A stretch of 59,309 nt of DNA, from positions 1-59,309 of the IMG/VR virus record IMGVR_UViG_3300024891_000004; one strand, given 5' to 3'. The position numbers and the translations under genes were made by a program. Each line of letters opens with the position of its first letter. Positions within the stretch are counted from its first letter, which is position 1. This stretch comes from a virus. Lineage: Duplodnaviria > Caudoviricetes. Under the pieces are notes generated by a model. The model was not told the DNA's origin, made no database searches, and worked only from the letters and a program-made list of their open reading frames with translations. Shown piece by piece: positions 1,579-59,309 of the stretch.

Positions 1579-1883
1579 ATCAGGTCTTTTTCCCAATACC
1601 CCTGCTTACCGTCACCGGCATTGGCACTGATCTTGGCCTTATACTTGGCATTCTCGGTCAAGGTCATGGTGTCCAGCAGGGTTGCACGATATAAACCGCT
1701 GCTACTGGTCACATAGGTCATGGTCTTAGGCCATACGTCACCCACCACATTCGCGCCGTCACTATCAACCAAGGTCACGATAACGGTTGCATCATTAATG
1801 GTTGCGCCGGTGGTTTCATTGGTCAAGTCTGACAATTCCAGCACCATATCATTGCCTTTGTATAACGCTGCTAACTCACTCAT
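1560..1883 (-). CDS. Small beta-rich putative virion/appendage protein
   Basis: 107-aa ORF overlapping both neighbours; alternating beta-strand pattern, Ig-like appearance. Confidence 0.55.
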   Translation of the reverse strand: MSELAALYKGNDMVLELSDLTNETTGATINDATVIVTLVDSDGANVVGDVWPKTMTYVTSSSGLYRATLLDTMTLTENAKYKAKISANAGDGKQGYWEKDLICKIRK

Positions 1884-29913: not shown

Positions 29914-30003
29914 ATGGATAAGCTATTCTTAGTTATAGGCTGGATCATCTTAGGCGGCTTCGCTGCTTACTCTGTTATTCGCCTGCTGTTGTCCTGGCTA
30001 TAA
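29914..30003 (+). CDS. 29-aa hydrophobic peptide, opposite to the late operon
   Basis: MDKLFLVIGWIILGGFAAYSVIRLLLSWL, RBS aaggg; overlaps the giant gene 3' end. Confidence 0.5.
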   Translation: MDKLFLVIGWIILGGFAAYSVIRLLLSWL

Positions 30004-33000: not shown

Positions 33001-36000
33001 CACCATAGTCATTTTCACCAGATAGTTCAATTCCCGTTTTTTCAGATGCAAATTGTGCGGCTTCTTCAAAAACAGTTGTGAAATAAGCGCCCTTGCCTAG
33101 CATTCCATTAATTGAAGTATCGAATGTATCAAATGAGTTTCCAGTACCATGATAAACAACCAACGGCTTACCATCAGCATCAACCACCTTGCTATCACCG
33201 AACCATGCCTTAAACTCTGGCGTATTAGTCTGGTCGCCTGAACTAGCTGCGGAATAAGCAGAACCAATGGTGTAATGCGTCACCTTGCTAGGTGATTTCA
33301 GGCTATCCAGTGCGCGAGTAACCAAAGTTCTCACTTCACCATCTGATACCGTCAGGTTCATGCCTAATCTGCGTAAGAAATTGCGCAAGAAAGCGACTAG
33401 TTTATCCATCACACTCGCTTTAATCCCGTTGCCGCCCATATCTGCCAATGATTCTTCTACGCTGCCCACCAGTGACAAATCTTTATGTGTAGCGCGTAAA
33501 GCGTCTGCCTGCTGTTTAATATCCTTATTGCTTAGATAAATGCCCATTAATGTAGCGTCAATCTCTTTACCGAATACACGGCGTAAGCCTTCATGGGTAG
33601 ATTCATGCAGCATGGTAAACAGGGCATGATTCGTATTGATGATGTTATTGCGGAATAAGTAAATCTCGCCGTTATGCCATGCGCCTGCAGCGTCATAGGC
33701 TTTGTCACGCTTAATGTCAGCGACTAATTCATCCGGTGCTTTGGTGTAATCTTCCAGCACATGAGTTAATGGCAGGCCACGTAAGGCTTGATTGACGTTG
33801 GCAACGACTGCATTCAGGTCACGAATATCAATACCGGTAGATTTCTGTGAGAATTTGGATTGTGGACGGCTGTATTTAGCTGTAATTCCTATATCTTCTT
33901 CATTGAATATAACGTAGTTGAAATCTTGCTTTGGCTGAATGTCGTATGCTTCATTTACTGCATCCTGCAAATCAGATTCAATAGCATTTTTATAAGCTTG
34001 CTTTAATCCATTAAAAGCCTCTGCTTCATTGCTTCCATTTTCTTTAAAGTCTTGCGCTGCATACAAATAAGCGCTATCACCGGTATATTTAGATCTGCCA
34101 TTTTTATTACGGCTTGAACCATCCAAGTATTTAATGCCGCGAATGCCTAAACTGTTAAGTTCAGCACTTGCCTTCTCTTGGCTATCAAACTTTCTCGCCC
34201 TAGAATTATAAAACTCGCCTGCTGTTGCAAAGTCTTGATTAAATGATGCTAGTGAGAATTTCTTTTCAAGGGCTGCAATAACAGTATTGCTCTGTTCAGA
34301 TAATGGCTTATCCCATAGCAGGTATTCATCTTCTGTTGGGGCTAGTTCTACTTCATAGAGTTTGCCATTGTTTGATGAAACTCTGCTTTTAAGCCCTTTA
34401 ACTATTTTTAAAGCATCTTTATTTAGCTCAATTTCACTCTGATTTTTAGCATTAGAAATATTTTTTTCTAACTGCTCAATAGTGTCGCTATATGCGCTTT
34501 TGCTTCCATCATTACTGTTGGACAGAAGTAAACGGAATGCCAATTTACCAGAAGGATTATCTCTATATTCATCAAGCATTCTTGCATCAATCGGCTTGCC
34601 GTCAATCATTAACCCCCGTGACAGGTTGTTTTTGTACCATTCAGCAACTTTCTGGCTGCCAGCGAAATACAATCCATAACCATAAGATTGATTCCCCTCA
34701 CCAGTGCCGATCTTACTCATTTCAAACTTATCATGGTCGTGTGGTGAACCGTGAAATGCGGCGTGCATTACGGCAATCACATTCCCATCAGCATCAACTT
34801 TTGCATTAAGTTTGCTGCGGCCTTCACGCAATACATTCAGCAAATCAGTTTCGCCGTACTCGGCTAATTTCATAAAGCCATGCTCACGCAACCATGCGCG
34901 GATCATGCCAATAATGGCTTTGGCTTTGTCACTGAACTTTGGATTCTGTGCGGTATAAGCCAGCATTTCTTCCATCATGACAGCAATCCTTGTGTCATCA
35001 CTAAATGATGATTTTTCAAGCTGACGCGCTACGTTAGATAGTTCTTGGGTAATGCCGCGCTGTTGGGCAATATCTTTTATGCCTTTTAAGCCACCAATGG
35101 ATAGGTATAACGCATTCAGTTTTTTGTTGATTTCTGTGCCATATAAACGGCGTATGCCAATATGACCTTCAACTTCATGCAAGATGATTGATTCTGCTTC
35201 CTGCTCACTTCCATTCATATCAGCAATCACATATACTTTGCCATTATGAGTTATGCCGGATGCGTATTTAGCTTCATCTTTGCCATATTGTTTTGTGGTG
35301 GTATTTTTTACGTCATCAGGCAATGCATCAAACGTAGGCACTGCGATGATGTCGATATTCCAAATTTTCTTGTTGGCGGCGAGTACCCTGCTGACAACGG
35401 TGTTGGCGGTGTCGAGAGTTATTGCCGTGAAGTCAGTGTTATTTCCACGCGATGCAAATAGGGCAATGCCTTTGTCGGTTTCTTTGGTTTTGATTTCATT
35501 GAATAGCACATCAAAAGCGGCATTAATTGCTTCGCGCTCTTTACCTTGTGGGTAGCGCTTTTTGGCTTCATTCAGCACGTCATCAATCATTGCATTGCCG
35601 GTGTTTATTTCTTCGGCCTGTTTCCATGCTGAAACAAGGTAATCATTTCTTCCGTCTGCGTTGGCAAGTTTTTCTGCCACATACATTTCAAAAGCACGCG
35701 CGAACAACTCATGCGGTGTTGACCAATATGGGTCTTTTTTTCCACCATCCAGGATGCTGGCGGCACGATAATATTCAGTATGAATTTTGCGCAGCACTGG
35801 ATCTGCTTTGAGCGCTTCTTGTGCTGCGCTGTGTCCGGCAAGCGTTAAGTTGAGATCATTAGCGCGGTCAAAATTCCAACCCAATTTGTTTGCAATATAT
35901 TTAACGTATTCAGAGGTGTAGCCCTGTGGCTTGCGCTTGCCTTTTAGCGCAGGCCATTCCGCATAGTCGCCTGTTTCACCGGAAATTATTGCATCCAGTG

Positions 36001-39000
36001 CTGCAAGCGCAGTTTCATCATCTTTAAGCGCCTCTTTTAATCCATTGCGCTCAACGTACTGCTCAATTCTTTCTTTTGAGTATTGCGCCTGTGCGGTGAT
36101 GCGTGCTTTTGCAGTTTCCGGTGTTTCCTGTATTTCGCGCATTGAGGTAACGATGGTATGAAAAGCATCAACAATTTCTTTGCGGATGCCGGATTCAGAT
36201 ACGTTTCTATGTTTGCCGATCCATGATGCAAACGGTTCATCGCTGGCGGCAAGCCCTGCCTGTACACCAAAGAAATGATCGAGGCCATGCGCCCATTCGT
36301 GCGCTAAAGAACCTGCGCCTTTTTCTCTCGTCAGATTAATCTCGTTATAGCCAGGATAAAAGTGTGCTGCAAACTTACCTTTACCTTGTGCGCCAATCGC
36401 AAGACCAAGCATTCCATCCAGCGACATTGCTTTCACTGGCATATTTAGCACTTCTGCAAGATCATGAAAAGCATCAAAGGCACTATTAACGTGTGATTGG
36501 CGCTCTTTAGCATTGGATGGTTGTTTCATCCAGTCGCCAAAATTTACCGCTTTCAATCCCACTGCATCCTGCAGTTCTTTTGATGAAACATTGCCATCAG
36601 CACGAAGCTCTCTGCCCTTACGGACGGATTTTTCTACTGGCGTTTCCGGCTCTTTAAAGGCTGCTTCACGCTCACGTTTTACCAATGCTCTGGCGGCTTC
36701 CACGGCTTCATCATGTGTTGCGTGTTCGCTCTTAGGTGAATAGCGACCTTTCTTAATGACTTGGAATTTTCCATCAGCCTCTTTGATCTGATATGAGCGC
36801 TGCCATGCTTCCTGTTTAGCAGGAAAGCCTTGCTGTACCGCCTTCATCGCGTCAATAAAACTGCTTAAATTAAGTTGAATGTTTTTATAAAAGCGATTGC
36901 CGGTTGCATTGGCTTTGTCATTGCCTTCTTTATTCTGCCTGCCCCAACGCGCACCACTTTCATTTTTAGGGAATACACGGTCAACAAAGTAATTTAAGTA
37001 GTTTTCAATATCGGTATCGTTTTCATTTCCGATATTGGCAATATCTATCACTTCATTGCTGTTGAGCATCCATGATTGTTTTTTGGCTTTAACCGCTACG
37101 GCAGTAATCATTCTTGCCATTGCTTGCTTGTCAGACAAAAATTCATCAACCGCTTTTTTAGTTGCTTCGACTACATCCACATAGTCGTACAGCATCTTTT
37201 CGCCTTTATAGGCTGGCTTAGAACTTAACCCATCATAGATTTGTTTAACGATATGTGCGATTGCAGGTTGTACACCGCTATCAACCAACGCCTGATAATC
37301 TGGTCGTTCCCATAGCTTAGTTTTAACCGCCATTGCCACGCGCTCGGTATCATTGTTCGCGTCTTGAATATCTTTAAGCGTTAAGCCTTTGTTGCGGCGG
37401 TTGCCAAGCATTTCAATACCAACATCGGAAGTATCTTTTAATGCTACGGTATCTGCCTTAGTTTCAGGTTTAGGCTGTTCGGATTTAGCTTTACGATTAG
37501 CATCCTCTGCATAAGTCTTAGCAAAGTGATTCTGCTTGCCTTGGGCAAGGCTTTTTAGTACACCCTCTGATACCTTGCCGCCTGATTTTGCGTGCGCTTC
37601 TATTGCTGCATAATGTTCATCTTCCAGTGAACCTTTTACCGATTCAAATTCATCGGCGCTCATTTGAGTTTTAGCAGTAGCTAAATACTCTGGTAATGTT
37701 TGCTCGTATGGCTGTTTTGTTTGTGATTGTTTTATTAATCTTTTATCAGGCTCTTTGCCTTGTTGAATTTCAACCAATGCGTTTTGCAATGCACCTTGAC
37801 GTTTTAATAGATTATTGAACGTTTCATTTACTGGCTTACCTTGCTGTTTTTTCAGTTCATCATTTACAGCATTTAATGCTTCTTGATAAGGCTTGGCTTG
37901 CGCTTCACGTTCTCTACCTAAGTCTGTAGCGGCTTTAGCGTTGCGCTCATTCAGGTCATTTTCTAAGCCAAAATTATATTTAAGTAAGTCAGCCTGTACT
38001 TCTTTTGATAACTGGTCATAAACAGACAATGGGATTTTTTTATCTCTAGGCGTATTCATAACTTCTTTGTTATAAACACTTAATGCCATAGCTTCTGTTG
38101 AACCGTCAGGGTCGCCAGTAGCAGAATTAATCATTGCTTGGCGTTTGTCACCATTGGCTTTATTTAGGTATGCGCTAGAATATTCGTTGCTGTTAAATCT
38201 ATTTTCTAGCCATTGGTCAAAAGTTAGCTTGTATGCTTCTTGTTTTTCTTCAACCTGTGATGTTGCCGATGTTTCAGCCTGTGATGCTTCAATTAAATCC
38301 TGCGCCCCTGCTGCACGCGCCTGTTCAAATTCGCTATCACTACCGCTTAGAGTAAAGGTATCTTGATTGTCTGTGCCAGTATTGCGCTTCGCGTCTTTTG
38401 CGCGTTCTGCATCGACTAGGGCTTGCTTGGCGGCGGTGTTGTCGCCTAAGAGGTCGGTTGGTGATTGAGTTGCAGTATTAAATCTTTCTTCTGCTAATTT
38501 ATACAGGCGATTTAGTTCTGGCAGGGTTTCATTGCGTAGTGCATCCACGGCTTCACGATTAATAAACTCTGATTCAAGTTTATTAATATTAACTTTAGCC
38601 TCGCGTTTTTCTTTTGGTGTTTTTGCAATTTTAAAAGCATATTCAGCTTTTGATAATTTTCCGCTTGCATCAGCGTATAGGTCGTTTGCAAAATTTATTT
38701 TGCGTTCAATTTCCGCAAGTGACCTAACAGATATTGGTATTAGGTTACGCAGTAATGGGTAGTTATTATTTTCGGCATGGCCTTCAACGGCATTTGAGAA
38801 TATGGCAGTAGCATCTACTGGTACGCCTTCATCAATTTGTTTTGCAATCGCTAAACGATCTACATATTGCTGATAAGGATTACGATTTTCTTTTGCAGAT
38901 ACAATGGCATCTTGCAACATTTCACGGAAATCGGATTTTTCTTCATCTGATTTTGCGCTATAAGATGCCTTGAATTTATCTAATTCAGTTTGTTCTTGTG

Positions 39001-42000
39001 GTACTTCCGCTACTTGGCTGGTGTTGCTTCCTTGGCTTTCAGTGTTTGCGCCATCTTGCTGTGCGCGTCCGCTGCCATTTTCAGTGCTGCCAGTTTCAGT
39101 ATCTTGTCCTGCCTGTCCTTCGGTAGCTTGGCTATTTCCTGCATTACCTGTTTCATCATCAAACTCCTCTTTTAACATACGCAGTAATGCGCGTTCAATT
39201 TCTACTTGTGGCTGGCCTTTCATAGATTCAGCCAGTGAAGCGTCAATTTCTGCAAGCGCTTCCGCACCATATTTAGCGGTGGCTTTTGTCACCAGTTCAT
39301 CAAGCAATGCCTGTTCGTCATCGCTTAATTCGCTGATAGCATTAGCATATTCCTCATATTTCTTTTGTGCTAGTGCTTCTTGGCCTTCTGCTGTCAATAC
39401 GTCCATGCCTGACATAGCATCAGCAATCGCATTACCTAAGTCTGCCACGCTTTCACCTACTGGATAACCTTGCTCTTTAAGCAGTTCGCGCATGGTGTCA
39501 GCATCTAGGCCAGTTTTCGTAAAGCTACGTTTAATGCCTGCGCCGTGTTGACGCATATCGGCAGGGTCAATACCAAATTCAGCTTTGGCTTTATCAGCAT
39601 TCAGGCCACCGAGTTTAGCCATTGCCTGCATTAAGCCGTCTTTTGTGGTGTCCAGCTTCATGCGTTCTTCCAGCATGGCCTTGGCTAGTTTGCTTTTCTT
39701 ATCTTTAGCGGCTAACTGCTCTGGTGTGTTCGCAGCCTGGTCATGTAATTGCATCAGAACTTCGCTGAATGCTTTGTTCTTTTTACCGAGTAAATTAGCA
39801 AAGTTCTTGAACTGTTTAGGCGATACTTTCTTGCCTGCCATGAAGTCTTTAGCGGCTTTGAGTGCCGGATCAAAACTAGGGTGCTTGTCTGCTGTAGCGC
39901 GTAGTTTAGTGAGTTGCTCGACTAATGGGCGTACTGTATCGGCAGGTTGTACAGATTCGTTTAACGGTGCGGCTGTTTCAGTATTGACGTTTTTAGGTGT
40001 GATAGCAGTTTCAGCAACCAATGGCTTGAGAATACTAGGAACTACCGGCAGTTGACTGCCAAACAGGTATTCTTCTGCACCATCTTTATCGGCTTGTGAT
40101 AAGTTTTTAAGATTGATCGCCTTGAATTGCGTCAAGTTAAAATCATCGTTGCGTGATTCTGCTTCGGCAATGGCATTATCGACCAGCCATTTATCAACGG
40201 CTTTCAGGCCAAAGTTTGATACCTTGCCATCTTTTCCATTGAATTTTGGGAATGGGGTTGTGGTTCTGCCGGACGCAGTAGTGACGACTTCTTGTGCTGC
40301 CAACATACCGCCGACTTCACCTTTACGCACTTGTACACCATTTGCAGTTTCATCGACACGTTCTGGCAATGTGGTTGTGGTATCGACATTGGTTGCATTT
40401 GTAACACGCTCAAAGCCATTTTCAGTTTTAACATACGGCACACCGCCAACATCGACCTGTTCACCGACTGCTACCTTAGTCATATCAACATCATTGCTTG
40501 TGGCGCTGACAGTTTCTAATGGCTTAGTTGGATCACCGTTTTTCAGCCAATCTTTAAAGGCTGGCGTTGTCAGTTCGGTAACAGATTTGCCGCCATTCCA
40601 ATCATCGGCATAGTTCGATTTGTAGATTGCAATCGCTTCGTCTGCGGTTTCTGCACCTAAAACGGCTTTGTGTTCATCAAAACTACCGTCTTTTTTGGTC
40701 TGGTTGATGACGAATACTTTACCGTTTGCAGGTTTATCACCCACGAATACATCCAGATTATCGCCGTCATTGCCTTTGGTGCGTTTGATGTAACCATAAT
40801 GGTTAGCCAGGGTATTTTCCCAAGCTGCGCCATCTTCATCTACGCCGCTACGGGTAGAACCTTGTGGATTTTCTACGGTAATATTCAGGCCGTCATACTT
40901 GATATGGCCTTTTTTGTAATTACCGGCTGCAGTTTGCGCTTCTGTTGGCTGTGGCAAGTCATTCAGCGGTGAAGTTGCCGCTTGCTGTGCTTGTTCGTCA
41001 ATGATTTGTTTTTCTGCGGCCTGTTCCGGTGCAATGGTTGCCGGTTCTATCGGTGCAATAGCGGTATCAGGCATGACACCATTCTGTTGCGCTTCGACTG
41101 CGTTCAGTGAATCAACGATATTAGGCTTGGCTTCTGTAGCGTCAGGCATGACAGGTTGTGGAGTGAGGCCAACGGCTTGCGCTATGGTTGCAGCGGAAGT
41201 CAGTGAACCTTCTGGGGCTGGTGGTGCTGGTGGTGGTGTAACTTGAGTATTGTCTTTGCCGCCAAAAGCATTCAGTGCGTTTGCACCGCCGCCCATTAAG
41301 CCGCCGGATAATGCGCCCATTGCGGCAGCATTGCCGACACCTTCATCCCAAGTTTTATCCAGTGATAAGTTTTGTGCAATCTGCTCTTGTGCTGATTGTG
41401 GCGCTTCTTCCAGCAAGCCTTCACTAATAACACCGCCTGCAATCGCTTTCGGCAATCCAGTTGCAAGTTGTGCCGGATTAAGTTTGCCTTGTGCCAGCAT
41501 GGTATCAATATCAGCAATACCAAGTTTCTGCGCAATGCTACCACTTGCCGCACTGATTACACCGGTCAACAATCCACTACCGGCCTGAATTGCCGCCTGC
41601 TTACCTGTCAGCAATCCATCTGCGGTTTCCTGTCTTAACTGTTCTGCGTTCTGGCCTGCAGTTACGATACCTTCACCGGCTGCACCGGCAATTACCGGCG
41701 CAAGTTTAGGTGCTACTGTCAACAATCCACGCGCACCGACACCACCCAAGCCCATCACCGGCAATGATTCTGCTGTGGTCTGTGCAATAGTTGACGGATT
41801 TTGCAGTGCGGTCTTGATGGTATTAACAAAACCATCAGCCTCTTGCACTTTCTGATTTGCAAGTTTCTGTTCTGGGCTGTAATAATCACTGATAAACTCT
41901 TTAGCCTGTTTAGGCTTGAAGCCTGCGCTTTCAGCCAGCTTACCGGCATGACCACCGGTTACAAGGTCAGCAAGACCAACTACTGTTTCAGGTACGCCGA

Positions 42001-42157
42001 TTGCGCCTTTTAATAGAGAAACACCGGTGTCGCCTAACGCTCTGCGGATTGTGCCGGATTTTGGCTGTTCAGTATCTAGTTCTGACGCATCAATTTCCGT
42101 TACAGGTGATTCATATCCATCAAGTTCAGACGCATCAATGATGTTGTTTTTCGCCAC
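29975..42157 (-). CDS. Giant polyvalent internal virion/ejection-type protein (4060 aa)
   Basis: Inorganic-pyrophosphatase-like domain (GNYKKGH...YGYIKRTKGNDGDNLDVF), LPD5/LPD1-like (AHEWAHGLD; YWSTPHELFARAFE), two zincin-like motifs (HEVEGH, HESTH), two ART-PolyVal-like domains (FHGSP...GLYF; YHGT...GAYFT), C-terminal LPD38-like region. Confidence 0.85.
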   Translation of the reverse strand: MAKNNIIDASELDGYESPVTEIDASELDTEQPKSGTIRRALGDTGVSLLKGAIGVPETVVGLADLVTGGHAGKLAESAGFKPKQAKEFISDYYSPEQKLANQKVQEADGFVNTIKTALQNPSTIAQTTAESLPVMGLGGVGARGLLTVAPKLAPVIAGAAGEGIVTAGQNAEQLRQETADGLLTGKQAAIQAGSGLLTGVISAASGSIAQKLGIADIDTMLAQGKLNPAQLATGLPKAIAGGVISEGLLEEAPQSAQEQIAQNLSLDKTWDEGVGNAAAMGALSGGLMGGGANALNAFGGKDNTQVTPPPAPPAPEGSLTSAATIAQAVGLTPQPVMPDATEAKPNIVDSLNAVEAQQNGVMPDTAIAPIEPATIAPEQAAEKQIIDEQAQQAATSPLNDLPQPTEAQTAAGNYKKGHIKYDGLNITVENPQGSTRSGVDEDGAAWENTLANHYGYIKRTKGNDGDNLDVFVGDKPANGKVFVINQTKKDGSFDEHKAVLGAETADEAIAIYKSNYADDWNGGKSVTELTTPAFKDWLKNGDPTKPLETVSATSNDVDMTKVAVGEQVDVGGVPYVKTENGFERVTNATNVDTTTTLPERVDETANGVQVRKGEVGGMLAAQEVVTTASGRTTTPFPKFNGKDGKVSNFGLKAVDKWLVDNAIAEAESRNDDFNLTQFKAINLKNLSQADKDGAEEYLFGSQLPVVPSILKPLVAETAITPKNVNTETAAPLNESVQPADTVRPLVEQLTKLRATADKHPSFDPALKAAKDFMAGKKVSPKQFKNFANLLGKKNKAFSEVLMQLHDQAANTPEQLAAKDKKSKLAKAMLEERMKLDTTKDGLMQAMAKLGGLNADKAKAEFGIDPADMRQHGAGIKRSFTKTGLDADTMRELLKEQGYPVGESVADLGNAIADAMSGMDVLTAEGQEALAQKKYEEYANAISELSDDEQALLDELVTKATAKYGAEALAEIDASLAESMKGQPQVEIERALLRMLKEEFDDETGNAGNSQATEGQAGQDTETGSTENGSGRAQQDGANTESQGSNTSQVAEVPQEQTELDKFKASYSAKSDEEKSDFREMLQDAIVSAKENRNPYQQYVDRLAIAKQIDEGVPVDATAIFSNAVEGHAENNNYPLLRNLIPISVRSLAEIERKINFANDLYADASGKLSKAEYAFKIAKTPKEKREAKVNINKLESEFINREAVDALRNETLPELNRLYKLAEERFNTATQSPTDLLGDNTAAKQALVDAERAKDAKRNTGTDNQDTFTLSGSDSEFEQARAAGAQDLIEASQAETSATSQVEEKQEAYKLTFDQWLENRFNSNEYSSAYLNKANGDKRQAMINSATGDPDGSTEAMALSVYNKEVMNTPRDKKIPLSVYDQLSKEVQADLLKYNFGLENDLNERNAKAATDLGREREAQAKPYQEALNAVNDELKKQQGKPVNETFNNLLKRQGALQNALVEIQQGKEPDKRLIKQSQTKQPYEQTLPEYLATAKTQMSADEFESVKGSLEDEHYAAIEAHAKSGGKVSEGVLKSLAQGKQNHFAKTYAEDANRKAKSEQPKPETKADTVALKDTSDVGIEMLGNRRNKGLTLKDIQDANNDTERVAMAVKTKLWERPDYQALVDSGVQPAIAHIVKQIYDGLSSKPAYKGEKMLYDYVDVVEATKKAVDEFLSDKQAMARMITAVAVKAKKQSWMLNSNEVIDIANIGNENDTDIENYLNYFVDRVFPKNESGARWGRQNKEGNDKANATGNRFYKNIQLNLSSFIDAMKAVQQGFPAKQEAWQRSYQIKEADGKFQVIKKGRYSPKSEHATHDEAVEAARALVKREREAAFKEPETPVEKSVRKGRELRADGNVSSKELQDAVGLKAVNFGDWMKQPSNAKERQSHVNSAFDAFHDLAEVLNMPVKAMSLDGMLGLAIGAQGKGKFAAHFYPGYNEINLTREKGAGSLAHEWAHGLDHFFGVQAGLAASDEPFASWIGKHRNVSESGIRKEIVDAFHTIVTSMREIQETPETAKARITAQAQYSKERIEQYVERNGLKEALKDDETALAALDAIISGETGDYAEWPALKGKRKPQGYTSEYVKYIANKLGWNFDRANDLNLTLAGHSAAQEALKADPVLRKIHTEYYRAASILDGGKKDPYWSTPHELFARAFEMYVAEKLANADGRNDYLVSAWKQAEEINTGNAMIDDVLNEAKKRYPQGKEREAINAAFDVLFNEIKTKETDKGIALFASRGNNTDFTAITLDTANTVVSRVLAANKKIWNIDIIAVPTFDALPDDVKNTTTKQYGKDEAKYASGITHNGKVYVIADMNGSEQEAESIILHEVEGHIGIRRLYGTEINKKLNALYLSIGGLKGIKDIAQQRGITQELSNVARQLEKSSFSDDTRIAVMMEEMLAYTAQNPKFSDKAKAIIGMIRAWLREHGFMKLAEYGETDLLNVLREGRSKLNAKVDADGNVIAVMHAAFHGSPHDHDKFEMSKIGTGEGNQSYGYGLYFAGSQKVAEWYKNNLSRGLMIDGKPIDARMLDEYRDNPSGKLAFRLLLSNSNDGSKSAYSDTIEQLEKNISNAKNQSEIELNKDALKIVKGLKSRVSSNNGKLYEVELAPTEDEYLLWDKPLSEQSNTVIAALEKKFSLASFNQDFATAGEFYNSRARKFDSQEKASAELNSLGIRGIKYLDGSSRNKNGRSKYTGDSAYLYAAQDFKENGSNEAEAFNGLKQAYKNAIESDLQDAVNEAYDIQPKQDFNYVIFNEEDIGITAKYSRPQSKFSQKSTGIDIRDLNAVVANVNQALRGLPLTHVLEDYTKAPDELVADIKRDKAYDAAGAWHNGEIYLFRNNIINTNHALFTMLHESTHEGLRRVFGKEIDATLMGIYLSNKDIKQQADALRATHKDLSLVGSVEESLADMGGNGIKASVMDKLVAFLRNFLRRLGMNLTVSDGEVRTLVTRALDSLKSPSKVTHYTIGSAYSAASSGDQTNTPEFKAWFGDSKVVDADGKPLVVYHGTGNSFDTFDTSINGMLGKGAYFTTVFEEAAQFASEKTGIELSGENDYGGDWVGTYIKEVYLNVTDKNDMADSKWGDGKIYVARKPEQIKSATDNNGDFNPKNPDTRYSRPTPRLSPVVQPATPIQQWQTPDKSKLDNVIYMLQNKFVDLKRVIQGIQKAGNSIDDKWNPYLQEELYTGRTATRTKDFIKHELEPLMKSMQARKVDMADFEEYLWARHAEERNIQIAKINPAMQDGGSGMTTQDARDYLANLTPVQSANYQALAAKVDAILKTSRQRLISYGLETPETIAVWEGAYQHYVPLMREDMDNGFGNGSGQGFSVKGNASKRATGSKRAVVDVLANIAQQVERNIIRGEKNRVSTALVGLATLNPNKDFWKVDVVPTMRTVVAGKNTYEVLYNGSVVQTFTNPVEANKFIQWNGAGYTLNIVKGQDLVMDVPDPSYKNRDNVVVARIVNAKGKIEEHFVEFNTHDERAMRAAASIKNLDQDQIGELLGTAASITRYFSSINTQYNPFFGVINILRDVQGSLLNLSSTPLAGKQLDVLKNTPLALKGIYQDIRSERKTGTPTNSYWSLLFEDFQKQGGQTGYRDMFRNAKERGEALKHALDPTWWQQTTAGKIVSINGILAKPEQFLIEAGQKYIFDWLSDYNESMENAVRLSAYKIGLDNGMTKAQAASLAKNISVNFNRKGEMGRQIGSLYAFFNASVQGTARIGETLFTDNNGKLTLSKAGKAIVTGGLLLGVMQALMLAAAGFGDDEPPEFVRDRNLIIPLGNGKAITIAMPLGFNALPAFGRILTEWALSGGEDTSKRFFHIFEMLAEVTNPIGNAGLSMQTITPTMFDPLAALAENEDWTGRPIAKMDFNSQKPTAGHTRAKDTASAISKGLSWVVNEATGGSDYTPGAISPTPDQIDYLLGQIFGGVGREYMKLEQSATSIVTGEELPVYKIPLVGRFYLNAEGQSSQSSRFYDNLKSVFETETELKGLRKDGLDTSEYRANHPEAALVFRANLEQREISQLHKLRSEKLKADASPEEIKALNERITARMLRFNELFIARTTAGE

Positions 42158-51891: not shown

Positions 51892-53421
51892 TTATTCCTT
51901 AGTGAGTTTATGAAAAGCATCCATCACCTGATCAACACTGATATTAGCCTGGCACAAGGCCACGCCGGACGTACCATATTGCGTACAGGTATCGAATGTA
52001 TAGTGCATCTGGTGGCATGGGTAACATGGTGTATGTTCAGGCTCTAGTGCAATCGTGTTTTCCCAATCACGGGTTAAATTGTGTGCGGAACTGTGCGACA
52101 ACAGGACAATCTTGCCATTTGGTTCAAACGCTACGGCATTGAGTAACCCTGTTTCCGAACCGATCACCATATCCGCAACCTGCGCAAATGCCATTGACTG
52201 CCGCATTGTCCATGCACCGGCACGCTTCACTACCCTAGTTTCGCCTTCCCATCCTTGCTGCAGCATTGCTTCATCTGCACCGCCGACCAGTACCACTTTT
52301 AAATCAGGGTACTGTAACAATACCTTGGCAATCACGTCATCCATCCACGGATAAACCTTGTGAATAGCAGAACCGGACAGCGACCATACAACAACATAAC
52401 CGCCTAATACTTCATACTGTTTTTTTGCCCACGCTACTTCATCATCACTGGCATAAAACAGTTGATCATGCGTTGCGTGCCGCAAATCCGCTATATCGTG
52501 TTGAAACTGTAGATAGTTACAATCTAAATACTTGTGGCGCATTTCCTGCGACCAGTTGAATTGTGTCGTATTAGGCAAGGCCAGCAAGCTACGTTCTACT
52601 GATTCAGACAGGTTTACAAACTTGTCGTATTTTTTGGCAAGGTGCGCCCAGAACTGGCCTAATTCATGGTTTGGTACTTGGTCATTGCCTTGCACCACGA
52701 ACTTATCAATATGCGGGTCGTGTTTGGTCACTTCATAACCCTGTGCTGCGGTATAGAACGTGACGTGATAGCCTAGCCGTTTCAGTCCGGCAATCACACT
52801 GGATGCTTGGATTGCGTCACCATAAGCGCCGTACCTGCAAACTGCGGCCTGTGGTTTAGCCCGTGTTTTTAATACATTTAGCTTACTAAAGTCGCCTTTC
52901 CCTGTGCCGCTTTTCCTGTAAACCTGAAAAAAGCTGTATTCATTACCGGCATTGCGTTCTTCATTGACTAATAACGACCAGTTGCCTGTAAGTTTTAGCA
53001 TAGCCTTTTTAATATCTACCGGCATAAAGTCATGTTTATGATCTAGATTAGCGCCAGGCTGTCCAACATTTGGGTAGTATTCTTTATGCGGCAGGTATAG
53101 AATCAGATAGCCGCCATGCTTAATGACGCGCCACCATTCTTTCAGTGCCGCCTCGTAATCCGTAATATGTTCAAGTAAATGCGAACTAAAAATGAAGTCC
53201 ATGCTGTTATCAGCAAAAATGCTCAAATCCTCGCAGGTATCGACCATTACATCGACACCTTGATTGCCCCAATGATGCCCGTTATCGACACCAATAAAAT
53301 GAGGGAAAGTCTTGAATAGACCGCAACCTAAGTCTAGGCCGCGCCCTGCGGTGTATTCAACAATATCCCATTTGATTTTTGCGGCTTCATTACCTTGTGG
53401 TGCTTTAATATCCCAGACCAT
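51892..53421 (-). CDS. SAM methyltransferase fused to a GT9 (heptosyltransferase-like) glycosyltransferase
   Basis: N-terminal LDLGCG...FSSHLLEH...EWWRVIKHGGYL; C-terminal RYGAYGDAIQ...ADMVIGSETGLLNAV...CYPC...C...C. Confidence 0.88.
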   Translation of the reverse strand: MVWDIKAPQGNEAAKIKWDIVEYTAGRGLDLGCGLFKTFPHFIGVDNGHHWGNQGVDVMVDTCEDLSIFADNSMDFIFSSHLLEHITDYEAALKEWWRVIKHGGYLILYLPHKEYYPNVGQPGANLDHKHDFMPVDIKKAMLKLTGNWSLLVNEERNAGNEYSFFQVYRKSGTGKGDFSKLNVLKTRAKPQAAVCRYGAYGDAIQASSVIAGLKRLGYHVTFYTAAQGYEVTKHDPHIDKFVVQGNDQVPNHELGQFWAHLAKKYDKFVNLSESVERSLLALPNTTQFNWSQEMRHKYLDCNYLQFQHDIADLRHATHDQLFYASDDEVAWAKKQYEVLGGYVVVWSLSGSAIHKVYPWMDDVIAKVLLQYPDLKVVLVGGADEAMLQQGWEGETRVVKRAGAWTMRQSMAFAQVADMVIGSETGLLNAVAFEPNGKIVLLSHSSAHNLTRDWENTIALEPEHTPCYPCHQMHYTFDTCTQYGTSGVALCQANISVDQVMDAFHKLTKE

Positions 53422-53431
53422 AATAGTTCCT

Positions 53432-53461
53432 AAAGAAGGGGCGACACATTGCCGCCCCTTC
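53432..53461 (-). terminator. Hairpin terminator after the decoration gene
   Basis: GAAGGGGCG.../CGCCCCTTC stem followed by T residues. Confidence 0.55.
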
Positions 53462-53478
53462 GTTTAACTATGTCAGCG

Positions 53479-53862
53479 TTAAGCTGTCAAGTCTGAACCT
53501 GGCACAACGTAAGTTTCTACTGCCACTGATAAGGCAATAGATGCGTCAGTACCATGTGCTACCCAGAACTGATCACCTTGCGCTAATGTAATATTGAGCG
53601 CATTGTTTTTAGGTGTAATGGCTGCAGAAGTAATTGCAGACAAGGTAGCGGTTGCGGTTGCTGTACCACTCTTAGTGTACAAAAGCGGCTGCGTCGCTGA
53701 TGTACCGGCGGTATTAACACCCAAAGTAACGGATTTAAGTTTTTGTGCAGTGAATGCCGCAAACTTTTGAGAAACGCCATTTGCGCCTGCTGGTGTACCA
53801 GATGAATAAACAACCGGCACTTGGTAGGCTGGATGGTCGTAGGCTTTATTTTTTACTGTCAT
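53479..53862 (-). CDS. Putative capsid decoration/cement protein
   Basis: 127-aa Thr/Ala-rich beta protein directly after the major capsid gene. Confidence 0.55.
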   Translation of the reverse strand: MTVKNKAYDHPAYQVPVVYSSGTPAGANGVSQKFAAFTAQKLKSVTLGVNTAGTSATQPLLYTKSGTATATATLSAITSAAITPKNNALNITLAQGDQFWVAHGTDASIALSVAVETYVVPGSDLTA

Positions 53863-53940
53863 TTCAGTTTCCTTTATCCTGCACGCCTCTCATACAGGAA
53901 GTTATTTGGCAGCGTGAGTAGGCACGATAAGCCAAGAATG

Positions 53941-53962
53941 AAAAAACCGCCCGAAGGCGGTT
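53941..53962 (-). terminator. Terminator after the major capsid gene
   Basis: AACCGCC-TTCG-GGCGGTT plus T-run. Confidence 0.85.
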
Positions 53963-53967
53963 GTTTG

Positions 53968-55827
53968 TTAGGTTGCTGAACCCCATTTCACGATACGGGC
54001 TTGTGCTGCTAGGGTATGCACCAGACCGAAGCCACCAAGGTAGTACCATGCAACGCCTTTTGAGCGCCCATAGTCACTAGGGATTTTGCCGCGGATTTCT
54101 TCCGGTACGGCAATGCCTTCTGCCACGGTATCTTCACCGAAGAAGTACGCCCAATTTGACAATCCATTTACCCAAGTTTCCTTGGCAACGTTGGTTTGTT
54201 CAACGAAGCGCACGCCTTCATAGCGACCAATCTCACCGTTCATGATCATGGTGAAGCCGGTTTCAACGTATTGATGCACGGCTTCCAAGTCATTTTTCAA
54301 TGTACGGAAAGTTGATGGATGACCAATCGAAAAGTAGTCATCGTTTTGGTAAGGTGGAATGTTGCGTTCCTTCATTACGTCCACGATAGCTTTGATATGG
54401 TTTTTACCCATTGCTACGTTATTGGTTGCTGGCGGTGTACCGTCAGTTGCCAATGTCACGGCAGTTGTGGAAGTGCCTGATGTTGGTGTCACCACCAATG
54501 GTGTCAATGCAAACTGCGCATAAGCAGCAGCATCGAATGCTTTTTTAGCATCGTTTTTCAGCACTTTGTTGATCACTTCTTTAACTGGGTGCTCTGACAA
54601 GTCATCCAATTTACCTGAATACGGACTTTTTTGTTATCGCATGGCTCTTTATCCATACTTCTAACGCTTTCACGTTAGAGCAGACTATATCATCCCTTTC
54701 GGGTAGCGTACTCTTGGGGCTTTACTGTGTGTTCTACACTCCATGCCCTAGTCGTTGAACCTTCCACTAATCCCTTAGTGGCTCGGCTGCTGATTGCCCA
54801 ATCCAATATCTTTTCAAACATTCACGCTTGCCTTTACAGGCTACGTTGTAGTGCTATTGGCTCTTAGGGGTTTCCAGCAATTCTCGCTATTTTCAAGTTT
54901 ACCTGTTTGTGGTAACATGGAAGTTCTCAACTTAGGAGAACGTCATGTCTATATCTAAAGAACAACTCGCCCGTGTAACTGTTGTTTGCAAATGCGGTTG
55001 TGGCGAATCATTTAGTGCTTTTCCTGTTTACAAAAATAAATCAGAAGGCGGCGGTTTGCGAATCCCTGAATATAAACGAGGTCATCATCCTAATTGTAGA
55101 AAGAAACAATTAAGTGGCGACCCTTGGAATAAAGGGTTACGCAAGGAAACAAATCCTTCTGTTGCCAAGCAAGGCGTTCGCGGTGTGGATCATTTTAATT
55201 ATGATCCTGAACAAAACCCCGATTGGTTTTCTAAAGATTTTGATTTTCGTGCTTTTTCAGAAAAATTTGGCACTAAACTTCGTAGCAAAGGCGGTAATAA
55301 GGCTTACGCTAAGTTTCGCAAAGCGATACTTAAACGTGATAACTATACGTGTCAGCACTGCGGAATATCTGACGATATTGGATTTGATGAAGATTCTTTT
55401 CTTCAAGTTCACCATATCGTTTATATCAAGCATGATAGAACCCGTATTTTTGACCCCACTAACGTTGTTACTCTTTGCTTTAATTGTCATTGGATAACTC
55501 ACAAAAGAAAGTAAGTTGCCGCTCTTAATGAATCAGGACGGAGTTACCGTATTCTGTAATAGTCAGTTCACCTTGAGTGATTGTGAAGTTTGTTTCAGGC
55601 ATTACATCGGTTTCAGCCAGTGCGCCACCTTGAGTAGCTACATCGCTGTACACGTTCCAATGGAACTTGTCGCCTTTACCTTTGCCTTGTTGAGTTGCGT
55701 CTTTTGCATCGCAAAATTGACGGAATTTCACCATTGGTTGTACGGCATTGCGCAAAACCTTTGATAAATTGAGTGAGTACATATAACCGCCTAAGCTGTT
55801 AGTACCCCATACTTGTTGACCTGCCAT
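53968..55827 (-). CDS. Major capsid protein, spliced: exon 1 55827-55538, exon 2 54625-53968 (315 aa)
   Basis: Joining ...TAC GGT AAC TCC GT to T CCG TAT TCA GGT AAA gives EYGNSVPYSGKLDDLS in frame (290+658=948 nt); GEIGRYEGVRFVE capsid motif; follows the scaffold gene. Confidence 0.9.
54891..54940 (+). promoter_or_regulatory. Candidate sigma70 promoter and RBS for the intron HNH gene
   Basis: TTTCAA-16-TAACAT with TGn extension; AGGAG 6 nt before ATG 54945. Confidence 0.5.
54945..55514 (+). CDS. HNH homing endonuclease, antisense within the intron
   Basis: CKCGCG N-terminus, PWNKG (NUMOD-like), RDNYTCQHCG...VHHI...NVVTLCFNCH. Confidence 0.9.
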   Translation: MSISKEQLARVTVVCKCGCGESFSAFPVYKNKSEGGGLRIPEYKRGHHPNCRKKQLSGDPWNKGLRKETNPSVAKQGVRGVDHFNYDPEQNPDWFSKDFDFRAFSEKFGTKLRSKGGNKAYAKFRKAILKRDNYTCQHCGISDDIGFDEDSFLQVHHIVYIKHDRTRIFDPTNVVTLCFNCHWITHKRK

Positions 55828-55852
55828 GATTAATACTCCTTATTGATCTTGT

Positions 55853-56806
55853 TTAAACGGGTAAGCCACGCGCTTCACGCATCGCACGGATGGTGTCGGA
55901 TGCAGTTGCTTCGCTGTCTGTGGCTGTTTCAGGCACACTTGTTTTCTGGCTGGCGGCTGGCACATGATCAAGGGCGGCTTTACGGGCTTCCCTGTCATTT
56001 GCTGTTACCGTTACGCCCTTGGCTTTCAGCCATTCGCGTGTGGTATCGCCTGCATAGGTCAAGGCTTCATCCAGCGGTTTACCGTCACGCAACGCTTGTG
56101 CGCGATGGGTATCTGCCATTTGAACCAAGAACGGATCAGTCACAACGTCCTGGTAATTGTCGATAAAAGCCTTCATTGCCACGTCATCCTGCATTTTTTG
56201 ACGCGCACGGTCGGCTACTTGGTCAATGTCAAGTTGTGGTTGCGGAATAGCCTGTTGACGTTCCCCCAATAACTTTTTCACCGCCTCTCTGGTTTTTTCT
56301 TCATCGCCTTCGTACAAGGCACTAACTAACTCATTCGCTTGATCGTCCAGTGAGGATGGATTAGCAGTTGGGTTGTTAGGAATTGCACTTAATGCTTCTT
56401 CTCGCTGGCGTAGTTCTGCTTCTTGCCGGTCAAGTTCTGCATTTCTTCGGGCGACTTCATCCAGCCGTTTTGAGGCGGCTGCGTCCTTTTGATAGACACG
56501 CAACGCCTCTGCCGCTGGCATCAGGTGTTCTTGTCCGTCAATCTTGGTGCGCACCTGATAACTGGCAAGTTCATCCTCGGTCAGTACGTGTGGTGCGCTG
56601 GTATTCTCTGCGGCAGGCTCTGGCGCTGCGGCGGCTTCTGATTTTGGCTCGGCTAGTCCTTGTTCGGCTAACTCGGCTTGGATCACTTCATGATTGTTAT
56701 TAGCGAGTTGTTCCATGAAGTCATAACGGGGATTATGTGAAGCCTGCACCCCTGTTTCTGTTTCGTTTTCCAACACGCCCGATTGGGTAGCGTTATTTTT
56801 AGCCAT
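55853..56806 (-). CDS. Capsid scaffolding protein
   Basis: Acidic coiled coil with KIDGQEH motif and basic C-terminus (MREARGL); between portal and capsid; start revised to 56806. Confidence 0.75.
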   Translation of the reverse strand: MAKNNATQSGVLENETETGVQASHNPRYDFMEQLANNNHEVIQAELAEQGLAEPKSEAAAAPEPAAENTSAPHVLTEDELASYQVRTKIDGQEHLMPAAEALRVYQKDAAASKRLDEVARRNAELDRQEAELRQREEALSAIPNNPTANPSSLDDQANELVSALYEGDEEKTREAVKKLLGERQQAIPQPQLDIDQVADRARQKMQDDVAMKAFIDNYQDVVTDPFLVQMADTHRAQALRDGKPLDEALTYAGDTTREWLKAKGVTVTANDREARKAALDHVPAASQKTSVPETATDSEATASDTIRAMREARGLPV

Positions 56807-56819
56807 TGCTTTACTCCAT

Positions 56820-56846
56820 AAAAAAAGCCACCGGTTAAGGTGGCTT
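56820..56846 (-). terminator. Rho-independent terminator
   Basis: AAGCCACC-TTAACC-GGTGGCTT plus T-run. Confidence 0.75.
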
Positions 56847-56872
56847 GGTTGCAACGTAGCTGAATGCTGCGT

Positions 56873-57166
56873 TTATTCCTGTCTATTCATCTGGTCTAGT
56901 TGTTCTTCACTGGATTGGCCTACAATAAAGGCTTCCTTTAGCCATAATTCAAAGTTTTCTGAACGGGCAATAATGCCTTGCAAGGTTCTGATGCGCTCGG
57001 TCTGTGTCGGGGCTATGCTTTTCAGTTCGTCAATGGCCTGAATCGCATCAGCAGCGGCACGGCCTAACAGGTATTTACCCAAATCAGAATTAAAGAAGGC
57101 TTCAACATCAAAGCCCAAAGCGATTTTCTTTTGAATCTCGTTTAGTTCCTGCTGGTTTTGGCTCAT
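56873..57166 (-). CDS. Small head-assembly protein between portal and scaffold
   Basis: 97 aa, FFNSDLGKYL motif typical of post-portal podovirus proteins. Confidence 0.6.
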   Translation of the reverse strand: MSQNQQELNEIQKKIALGFDVEAFFNSDLGKYLLGRAAADAIQAIDELKSIAPTQTERIRTLQGIIARSENFELWLKEAFIVGQSSEEQLDQMNRQE

Positions 57167-59309
57167 TTGCGTTTGGTTTCCATTGAAGTATCAGGCGGTG
57201 TGGAAAATGCTTCGTGTAATGATCTGCTTGCTGGCGTTGATACCGCTTCTTCTACTCGCTTTTGTAAGGTCTTTGCAGGCTCTTGTTTAGGTGCGGCATC
57301 ACGCTGGCGCTGTTCTTCTGCACGCGCTTTCGCACCTGTCATCAGTTCATGCAGGCCGTCTTTAATGCCTTGCACGATACCGCCGTCTGCAAATTGCTGT
57401 GCGCCTTCCACTTCCTGCGCTTCTTCACCGCCCTGCATCTGTCTTAGCAGTAAGCCAAGTTCATTTAGTTTATTCAGTGTATCTTCACCAAGTAAGGCCA
57501 TTGCCTCTACATTCAGCACGCCTTCGCCTGCAGTTGCCATTACTGGAACGTTATCAGCGGTAGTGGTTGGGCTTACGCCTTGTACCGCACCACCATCCGC
57601 TTTGGCCTGCATTGGATTAACGTATTGCTGTTCTTGCTGTAGGTGTAATTGCTGTGCAAAAGCATCGGCATTCATTGGATTATCAAATTTGCCTAAATGC
57701 TGACCTGACTTAACATACTGCTGAATTGCCGCATCGTTATCGAGAATACCGCTGCCATCGCTGGCTACGGTTGGAATCAGCACTTCATACTGACCATCAT
57801 TGAAACTCATGCTGCGCACGGTACTGATAGAACCGTCTGGGTTATTCACAATAGGACGGTTATTCAGGTCGATATTGCCAGGCTCGATAATGCCGCCATC
57901 AGCTAACGCCTGCACACCATCTGCCGCCGCTGTTTCAATGCCGGTCATCGGGCTTGCTGGTACGGCTGGCTGCAATGGCGAAGTGTTCTGGTTAATATCA
58001 GGCATTGGTGTACCCACGGCAGTCGCCGGTACGTCTGTGGCTTGCACGCCATCACCGGCAATCGGTGTCCAGCCTGCGCCTTTCAATACTTCATCAGCTA
58101 CCGGTGCAACGGCTGGTGTTGCCGCTACAATCTGGCCTGTTTGCATCGCGCTAAACTGTGTTTCCACGTTCTTGCTGACTTTCTGTGACTTGATATAGTC
58201 TGCTTCTGCCAGTAGTTTCGCTACGGTAGCATCACGCACTGCCGGATCAAGTTTCGCATCAAGTGCGGCCTGTAATTCCTGCAATTTCTGTTCAAGTTCA
58301 GCCACACGAGGATCGCCATCAGCATCATTAAAGAAGCGCTGACCATCCTTGTAACCCAATTTACCGAAAATTTCCTTGGTGACTTCTTCAACATTGATTT
58401 TTCTGCCAACACTGGAAGCATCAATTTCAGCCAGGGTACGCATACCCATCGTGAAGCGCTCAAACTGTGCCTGCGGATTAGTAGAACCAACGCCCACATT
58501 GACGCGCACCAACATATTGCGCTCTAGTAATTCATCGGTAATGTCAGAAATACCGTATTTTTCGTATAATTTAGCCTTCGTACCGGCAAAAATAAGGATG
58601 GTCTGGTCAGTTTCATACTGTTGTTCCAGCATCACTAACTGTGTAATAACCTTTTCTGCCCATGTTTCCACGAAAGTACGCAGTTGATACTCACTGATCT
58701 CGTTGGCGCTTTCGCTCAATAGCGTCATGCCGCCCACGGTTTCATTCAGTTTGCGGTTGGATTGCACGCTTGAACCATTGAATGCACCGGCTAAGTCGTC
58801 AAAGTCTAGGTTTAAGCGGTCTTGTTCCTGATAGCTAGAACTTGTTACGTCCGGCGTGTCCAATACCTTCACATCGTCAATATCGTTCATCAATGTCACG
58901 GATGACGGTACATTTCTGGTCAGACTGCGAATATCGACCTGCGCATTGCGCTTGGCAAAGTAACGTTTATTCATCGCGAACTTAACGTTATCAATACGCT
59001 GGTTGGCGATTTCGTTAATTTCCACCTGCAGATCGTGTACCAATTCCACCGGTGCGCTGGTATAAGCCTTGTGTGATTCAATCAGGGCACTACCAAGCGC
59101 AAATGGGCGTTTACCGTGCCAATATTGGTCTTTCAGCGGCGCAGGAGTGCTTAAAACGTGTTCTGTACCTAACGTGTAGTACATATGATCCACGCCATCG
59201 ACTTCAATCACGTTGAAATGCACCCAGATAATCTTGTATTCACTCACATCAGTGTTGTTGTCAGTCGGGTCGGTGCGATTACTACCCTGGCGTGTCTGTC
59301 TGATACTGT
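57163..59309 (-). CDS. Portal protein (5' end outside the window) with C-terminal extension
   Basis: RPF...LQVEINEIANQRIDNV...ETVGGM...VNVGVG P22-like portal motifs; frame stays open to the window end. Confidence 0.88.
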   Translation of the reverse strand, partial: SIRQTRQGSNRTDPTDNNTDVSEYKIIWVHFNVIEVDGVDHMYYTLGTEHVLSTPAPLKDQYWHGKRPFALGSALIESHKAYTSAPVELVHDLQVEINEIANQRIDNVKFAMNKRYFAKRNAQVDIRSLTRNVPSSVTLMNDIDDVKVLDTPDVTSSSYQEQDRLNLDFDDLAGAFNGSSVQSNRKLNETVGGMTLLSESANEISEYQLRTFVETWAEKVITQLVMLEQQYETDQTILIFAGTKAKLYEKYGISDITDELLERNMLVRVNVGVGSTNPQAQFERFTMGMRTLAEIDASSVGRKINVEEVTKEIFGKLGYKDGQRFFNDADGDPRVAELEQKLQELQAALDAKLDPAVRDATVAKLLAEADYIKSQKVSKNVETQFSAMQTGQIVAATPAVAPVADEVLKGAGWTPIAGDGVQATDVPATAVGTPMPDINQNTSPLQPAVPASPMTGIETAAADGVQALADGGIIEPGNIDLNNRPIVNNPDGSISTVRSMSFNDGQYEVLIPTVASDGSGILDNDAAIQQYVKSGQHLGKFDNPMNADAFAQQLHLQQEQQYVNPMQAKADGGAVQGVSPTTTADNVPVMATAGEGVLNVEAMALLGEDTLNKLNELGLLLRQMQGGEEAQEVEGAQQFADGGIVQGIKDGLHELMTGAKARAEEQRQRDAAPKQEPAKTLQKRVEEAVSTPASRSLHEAFSTPPDTSMETKRK

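Follow-up and report, generated by a model that had tools for sequence, protein, structure and literature searches.

Why should the portal protein of a phage carry, beyond the point at which the profile of its family ends, three copies of a short ADGG motif and a stretch that resembles the tape measure proteins of phage tails? The question is raised by an open reading frame (ORF) at the end of IMGVR_UViG_3300024891_000004, a linear virus record of IMG/VR (59,309 bp; estimated completeness 77%), which was analysed in its entirety and is called here the window (also G000). The ORF, located at 57163..59307 on the minus strand, leaves the contig at its end, so that 714 residues are visible (P0001). 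It encodes a portal of the SU10 type to which a cassette has been fused, consisting of a domain of ~95 residues, designated domA, and a tape-measure-type module of ~75 residues, designated modB. The fusion is real and under purifying selection, and we tentatively suggest a role for the cassette in the delivery of the genome.

The product of the ORF matches PF23899 (SU10_portal) over residues 7–347 in a Pfam scan (E value 9e-23; 81 bits, with a cut-off of 30). The alignment spans profile positions 259–592 of 593, so that the core fits the last 334 positions of the profile of the family typified by the portal gp6 of Escherichia phage SU10 (PDB: 7z44), and the N-terminus of P0001 lies off the contig. 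A complete orthologue of 947 amino acids, P0002, also contains PF23899, and about 233 N-terminal residues of P0001 are thus expected beyond the contig end. In PHROGs, the core matches phrog_1216, 'portal protein' (E value 2.4e-13); phrog_332, 'head-tail adaptor', scores equally, and was set aside because of the PF23899 match and the gene order. The portal gene is followed by an ORF of 97 codons, a coiled-coil ORF of 333 codons that resembles a scaffold gene, and the capsid gene, and the same order of portal, small ORF, scaffold-like ORF and capsid is found in Vibrio phage 1.232.O and Escherichia phage PTXU04. The terminase gene lies off the window contig, and was found upstream of the portal in a relative, L055. 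Based on a score above the Pfam cut-off and on its position in the head module, the ORF is assigned to the SU10-type portal family. The phage is an uncultivated podophage of ~60 kb; PTXU04 and its relatives are described as podoviruses of ~60 kb in the available text of PMC11990801. Even the closest isolates are just 35–43% identical in the portal core (Vibrio phage 1.232.O, 43%; Xuquatrovirus, 35%), and their portals contain no ADGG, domA or modB, that of Vibrio phage 1.232.O ending in a charged coiled coil. None of the 52 phage records matching the portal covers the extension, and megablast of window positions 53000–59309 gave no match.

Whereas the SU10 profile ends at residue 347, the window protein continues for about 365 residues, which are arranged in two layers. 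The first (residues 350–465) is a helix followed by a Pro/Ala-rich linker and is common to the wider portal family. The motif NTSP..P...GIET..ADGV lies within the end of the linker, at residues ~440–465, and most of the portal tails of 17 relatives stop at this motif or a few residues past it. The second layer (residues 466–714) is an add-on of ~250 residues confined to a small clade, and contains domA, modB and a charged C-terminal tail (Table 1). A preliminary description of the locus had noted the ORF and its translation, the three ADGG motifs, a Pro-rich linker and a compact domain of ~90 residues, and all of these are present as described; its coordinates need the qualification that 57163 is the first base of the stop codon, in addition to the N-terminal residues that lie off the contig. 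From composition, 0.026 ADGG motifs would be expected (Poisson probability of three or more, 3e-6), and none of 20,000 shuffled sequences had three, while four had two. The same description saw the extension as segmented by three tape-measure-like motifs, which holds in part. The motifs are of one type and modB is of the tape measure kind, but the domain in the middle has no relationship to the repeats of tape measures. Rather than bordering three tape-measure-like segments, two of the motifs form the head and trailer of a single modB, and the remaining one is a duplicate of its head.

The likeness to tape measures resides in modB. By itself, modB matches four PHROG families, all of them annotated as 'tail length tape measure protein' (E values 7e-5 to 3e-4), and a phmmer search of 1.84 billion representatives returned 266 proteins at E<=1e-3. 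Among the non-portal matches listed, 104 of 148 are at least 2000 residues long (median 2499), with 2–6 matched stretches in each, and two of the five modB proteins that were scanned (P0122 and P0125) carry an N-terminal PF10145 PhageMin_Tail domain. The consensus of 213 instances is.A.GG.vpG.gt.tsDtVPAMLTPGEFViNk.Avk.iG.dtLnklN..G.......gg., and the unit may be written as xAxGG - D.(I/V)P - GE(F/Y)V - G...L..N - xAxGG. Around 348 GE.V cores, [AGS]xGG is present within 45 residues upstream in 299, downstream in 268 and on both sides in 237. The profile built from the 213 instances also matches residues 753–779 of the phage lambda tape measure protein gpH (15.7 bits; E value 7.6e-7 in a single-sequence test). 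The lambda copy spans residues 735–783, with FATGG at 735 and YATGG at 779, and has the arrangement of modB, namely FATGG, 13 residues, GEFV..KEA..IGVGNL and YATGG. According to the available text of PMC12617516, gpH loses a C-terminal piece of ~14 kDa (gpHC) by a cut in a glycine-rich region, and the modB-like stretch is inside this piece; residues ~690–817 of the removed piece are unresolved, and the cleavage site and the catalyst in lambda are described there as not known. The stretch ADGG...GEGV...A..LG..L..LN had already been compared with tape measures, and specifically with the region of gpH removed by proteolysis, and the PHROG and profile matches agree with both comparisons. On these alignments, modB is judged to be homologous to a tape-measure module. 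No match to modB was found by tblastn in 50,697 phage records, and a literature search on the motif strings gave noise only, which says nothing on whether the motif has been published.

Unlike lambda gpH and other tape measures, the window protein is a portal, and lacks PF10145, a long helical ruler and the context of tail genes. PF10145 had no match at E<=1 in the visible protein or at E<=10 in the extension, and when the visible protein was scanned with Pfam, the MuF families (PF04233 and PF06152) likewise had none at E<=1. A likeness to Peptidase M23 (PF01551) was rejected (13 bits, with a cut-off of 28.7; E value 0.1), the match covering the last 37 profile positions only, over the strand region D.VP..GEGV. 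Apart from this sub-threshold match, the scan of the extension at E<=10 gave no Pfam family, and no named LPD or enzyme domain. To judge from its domain content, P0001 belongs neither to the tape measure proteins nor to the MuF proteins or M23 peptidases, and shares just one module with tape measures.

Since the window consists of one metagenomic contig, at whose end the ORF is cut off, the fusion might be an artefact of assembly or frame, or else a decaying passenger devoid of function. We consider this practically excluded. The frame is open in four further contigs (L007–L010), whose portals are 82–100% identical to P0002, and in proteins of other origin. The fusion region is tiled with no differences by Logan contigs of run X1, which may be the source sample, and a diverged contig of 7273 nt from run X5 spans 57326–59026, including domA, with two compensating indels 3 nt apart as its sole indels. 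Among the sequencing runs listed for the sequence, none is an RNA run. In pairwise comparisons with L007–L010, the ratio of non-synonymous to synonymous substitution rates (dN/dS) is 0.03–0.07 in the core, 0.06–0.12 in domA and 0.07–0.20 in modB. Because the frame is conserved, dN/dS is low and independent contigs agree, the fusion is real and under purifying selection; the continuity assumed in the preliminary description is confirmed.

To assess how widely the cassette is distributed, 65 portal relatives were fetched from viral contigs and 675 kb around them were scanned for domA and modB. The fusion is present in four of the 65 with modB, three of which also have domA; in these sequences domA occurs solely in the three fusions. 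Outside the fusions, modB was found as one separate ORF, in L055. At 1629–2812 (plus strand) of this contig, between the terminase and portal genes, there are three adjacent small ORFs of 95, 149 and 153 codons, each with K(F/Y)ADGG-type motifs and a basic C-terminus rich in H, R and G, and the third contains a full modB. An untethered form of the ADGG/modB unit therefore exists in this portal family, in one of the 61 fusion-less relatives. Among the relatives scanned, the idea that the segments might be encoded as separate genes is thereby supported for modB and not for domA. Other [FY]AxGG matches, in the related loci L014, L021, L028, L063 and L069, were rejected as being in the wrong frame or unrelated.

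domA is recognized by the pattern GNIDLNNRP...STVRS...LIPTV...HLGKF...LH..Q..Y. Its search yielded 766 proteins at E<=1e-3 among 8000 candidates scored, and 117 of the best 120 listed matches contain the domain, at identities of 40–87% (55–73% in non-portal proteins). For phage proteins, the latter values point to unusual conservation. Among the 117 carriers, domA is N-terminal in 46, internal in 57 and C-terminal in 14, and its partner domains include SLT, Phage_lysozyme, Phage_lysozyme2, Peptidase_M15_4, LPD23, ART-PolyVal and DUF6782. It is present in a 937-residue protein of SPN1S, adjoining two 'internal virion proteins', and accompanies a tail-lysozyme domain in a protein of a Rhizobium phage. 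In seven non-portal carriers domA is directly followed by modB, and the modB of these seven likewise matches the tape-measure PHROGs. Each genome searched has a single domA, in the portal, including the 95%-complete relative G001.

No Pfam or PHROG family matches domA, and most carriers are without a precomputed Pfam family across it. The AlphaFold2 model, made with 104 sequences, consists of a small beta sheet packed on two helices (predicted local distance difference test (pLDDT), 82; predicted template modelling score (pTM), 0.70). Foldseek searches of the PDB with this model and with a model of 260 residues gave nothing at E<=1e-3, and the extension sequence had one chance match to PDB chains (E value 0.59). 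VIA-align wide gave for domA a best Z of 4.4 (PH domain, 1h10; 60 residues; root-mean-square deviation 3.4–3.5), which is below the meaningful level, and its matches to the helical tail were dismissed as generic coiled coils; no claim of a new fold rests on VIA or Foldseek. A search of the ESM Atlas had a top score of 0.86, to unnamed viral clusters of 120–128 residues, and is to be taken as a lead only. In BFVD, 11 phage proteins match the model at E<=1e-3, among them entries named 'large polyvalent protein', one named 'tape measure protein', as well as stand-alone proteins that are 128 and 147 residues long.

The position of domA in the portal can be traced to an insertion. Two copies of a 22-nt direct repeat (family D5; 77% identity), which encode (M/V)QA(K/L)ADGG, are spaced 303 nt, or 101 codons, apart and bracket domA exactly. 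Relatives without domA (P0005, P0010, P0038 and L009) read directly ...GIET..DGVQAL-[AS][DE]GG-modB, and contigs from runs X2 and X3 pass straight from 57548 to 57893, thus without domA. In P0004, a portal relative of 858 residues, domA is cut to 13 residues (…ADGGIIDLNNRPIVNNTDGGAVQG…), with the junction at a D-G-G microhomology; this deletion remnant implies that loss of domA is tolerated or recent. On the strength of the repeat, the domA-less relatives, the contig joins and the remnant, domA is a 101-codon cassette inserted at the head of modB, the insertion having duplicated this head and so given rise to ADGG #1. The same motif forms a junction in another portal lineage, in which L031-type portals end in ...EAYANGGVVG and a short tail. 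A portal of 843 residues from a different lineage (L040, 5998–8526, plus strand) has an insert of ~100 residues between FSNGG and YANGG; it resembles domA by eye, but the domA hidden Markov model scores below 0 and Pfam finds nothing, and homology is not claimed.

These data allow the interpretation that domA is the active part, a new envelope-directed domain that binds peptidoglycan or glycans or is a small hydrolase, and that modB and ADGG are recombination-prone linkers by which it moves. The association of domA with four kinds of muralytic domains would suit such a role, as would a set of polar positions that hardly vary (N, D, R, D, S, T, R, S, E, T, D, Y, H, Q, Y) and the fact that the named hosts are all Proteobacteria. 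The scar of the insertion is a repeat that encodes QAxADGG, and xAxGG also brackets the different insert of the L040 lineage. However, [AGS]xGG is found within 20 residues upstream in just 20 of the 117 domA copies, so domA usually moves without ADGG. Furthermore, modB is itself conserved by the dN/dS values given above, and is kept in relatives without domA, while no fold match backs binding or catalysis. This interpretation, which overlaps the others considered below, seems to us unlikely.

Several known systems provide a frame for a function of the cassette. The SU10 portal is built of a wing, a stem, a clip, a crown and a barrel with its C-terminus, like the crown and barrel, inside the head, and density within its barrel has been attributed to the end of the DNA or to ejection proteins (available text of PMC9509320). 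Published fusions of portals with effectors have been interpreted as cargo for injection (Iyer et al. 2017, PMC5512222, in part), and PBECR, 2H and InPase domains are reported fused to portal or MuF proteins (PMC5512222; Jamet et al. 2017, PMC5576092; both in part). As in those fusions, a protein of the head vertex has here acquired extra C-terminal domains, domA and modB in one frame, that would thereby be packaged, and in other phages domA is accompanied by LPD23, ART-PolyVal and DUF6782. In contrast to the described fusions, the appended modules include no enzyme or named LPD domain, and one of them is a tape-measure module. Portal-cargo fusions as such are known; the combination of portal, tape-measure module and domA is not mentioned in the available parts of PMC5512222 and PMC5576092. 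A further parallel exists with the T7 gp14–16 core stack and the P22 E-proteins, since the predicted site of the cassette is the capsid side of the portal, and with T7 gp16, whose transglycosylase context recalls the muralytic internal proteins in which domA sits (both PMC8954989, available text). Unlike the case of the T7 and P22 ejection proteins, to which no sequence similarity was seen, the module is here covalently part of the portal.

Our preferred reading, for which we would claim somewhat less than an even chance, is that the cassette acts in genome delivery, most likely after its release from the portal by cleavage. Being fused to the portal C-terminus, which in solved portals faces the interior of the capsid, the cassette would be built into every procapsid in twelve copies, at the inner mouth of the DNA channel, where the copies would be held on the 71-residue linker as a flexible tether. 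It might then contribute to delivery in the manner of the homologous modules of tape-measure and ejection proteins, following a cut in the linker/ADGG region analogous to the conversion of lambda gpH to gpH* and gpHC. Release is favoured because of this analogy and of the free proteins of L055.

Several observations weigh against this proposal. Prohead proteases of the S78, S49 and ClpP families were not found in the window or in G001, a negative that spans these three families, with unrecognised or host proteases and self-cleavage outside it; on account of their absence, release is held weakly. domA is without a structural relative of known function (the best Z being that given above), and modB, modelled as a single chain, has a pLDDT mostly below 60, so that with such poor folding its structure yields no functional clue; a complex prediction with three copies of modB plus tail scored 0.03, which is no evidence either way. 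Finally, the presence of the fusion in four of the 65 portal relatives marks the cassette as accessory, and close relatives lack domA or retain a remnant only (P0004).

The absence of an S78, S49 or ClpP protease would be explained if the cassette stayed attached for the life of the virion, as an internal appendage of the barrel that docks or organises the leading DNA end or a packaged polyvalent protein of 4060 residues, or that plugs the channel. The phage encodes such a polyvalent protein, which must be loaded into the head; domA is borne by cargo proteins of this kind elsewhere, and a portal-domA fusion could, by Rosetta-stone logic, mark a contact between portal and cargo. Portals and barrels are known to have ejection proteins placed on or around them (PMC8954989, in part), and SPP1 gp7 binds its portal (PMC5576092, in part). 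However, domA is 55–73% identical across otherwise unrelated proteins of phages with different portals, which would be expected of binding to an invariant ligand more than to a phage partner that co-evolves with it. Moreover, domA is dispensed with in close relatives, and L055 encodes ADGG/modB units untethered. A permanent tether is the main alternative to release and a possibility to be reckoned with, though a somewhat less likely one.

The release reading can be extended to the proposal that xAxGG-modB, with domA as optional cargo, is a portable module for leaving through the DNA channel, used by the tape measure, by ejection proteins and by this portal, and marking the point at which its carrier is cut. 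The portal would in that case be a polyprotein giving twelve ejectable domA-modB peptides per virion, and domA would be a new envelope-binding fold. We regard this extension as speculative and quite improbable.

The remaining observations concern the tail of the portal and the neighbouring genes. The C-terminal tail is the least constrained part of the protein, with helices predicted at pLDDT 60–82 and dN/dS of 0.27–0.39 with L008 and L009 (synonymous divergence is saturated with L007 and L010). Within the tail, positions 57200–57311 are replaced in the contigs from runs X2, X3 and X5 by unlike sequence that is about as long; the alignments skip 110/116 letters between, which indicates a local hypervariable patch. 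The portal stop TGA overlaps the start ATG of the 97-codon ORF (ATGA, 57163–57166), and translational coupling is thus suggested; the product of that ORF has no Pfam or PHROG match. The major capsid gene is apparently in two pieces, at 55525–55827 and 53968–54609 (both minus strand; overall 53968–55827), between which lie a group I intron (RF00028, 54661–54954, minus strand; 53.7 bits, gathering score 50) and, on the opposite strand, an HNH endonuclease ORF (54945–55514, plus strand; PF01844, E value 7.8e-8). The large polyvalent protein is encoded at 29975–42157 (minus strand) and contains InPase (E value 3.9e-51), LPD1, ART-PolyVal and LPD38, as well as a weak DUF2188; a search of it for domA and ADGG/modB found neither. 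In the structural gene block, an ORF of 509 codons (51892–53421, minus strand) has an N-terminal S-adenosylmethionine-dependent methyltransferase domain (Methyltransf_11, E value 1.9e-12).

Table 1. Parts of the portal protein P0001 and the adjoining ORF, in window coordinates
Feature	Residues	Position	Strand	Basis or remark
Portal core, visible part	1–349	58261..59307	-	PF23899, phrog_1216, orthologue P0002
Continuation beyond SU10 profile	350–394	58126..58260	-	probably helical; kept in C-terminal tails of distant relatives
Pro/Ala-rich linker, 71 residues	395–465	57913..58125	-	68% P/A/G/T/V
Direct repeat copy, encodes VQALADGG		57893..57914	-	family D5
ADGG #1, duplicated modB head, upstream of domA	469–472	57892..57903	-	direct repeat family D5
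domA, compact alpha/beta, ~95 residues	~466–565	57613..57891 (= residues 473–565)	-	homologues, AlphaFold2
modB, tape-measure-type, ~75 residues	566–643	57379..57612	-	PHROG, phmmer and profile matches
Direct repeat copy, encodes MQAKADGG		57590..57611	-	family D5
ADGG #2, modB head	570–573	57589–57600	-	
ADGG #3, modB trailing motif	640–643	57379–57390	-	
Charged C-terminal tail, predicted helical	644–714	57166..57378	-	34% K/R/D/E
97-codon ORF		56873..57166	-	gene at same position kept in Vibrio phage 1.232.O and PTXU04

The locus links the portal of a podophage to modB, which in the present analysis otherwise turned up in tape measure and ejection-type virion proteins, and it has allowed this module to be defined precisely, with its head and trailer motifs included. 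In lambda, the modB copy of gpH is placed in the fragment whose cleavage stayed unexplained for decades, and FATGG and GEFV offer a concrete target for mutagenesis. The analysis also reveals domA, a virion domain that is highly conserved and widespread, for which Pfam, PHROG and PDB gave no counterpart, and whose partners include muralytic and polyvalent effector domains. Finally, modules are shuffled in a portal family at the end on the capsid side, where an insertion has left its scar, and this end may therefore be a natural site for loading cargo into capsids.

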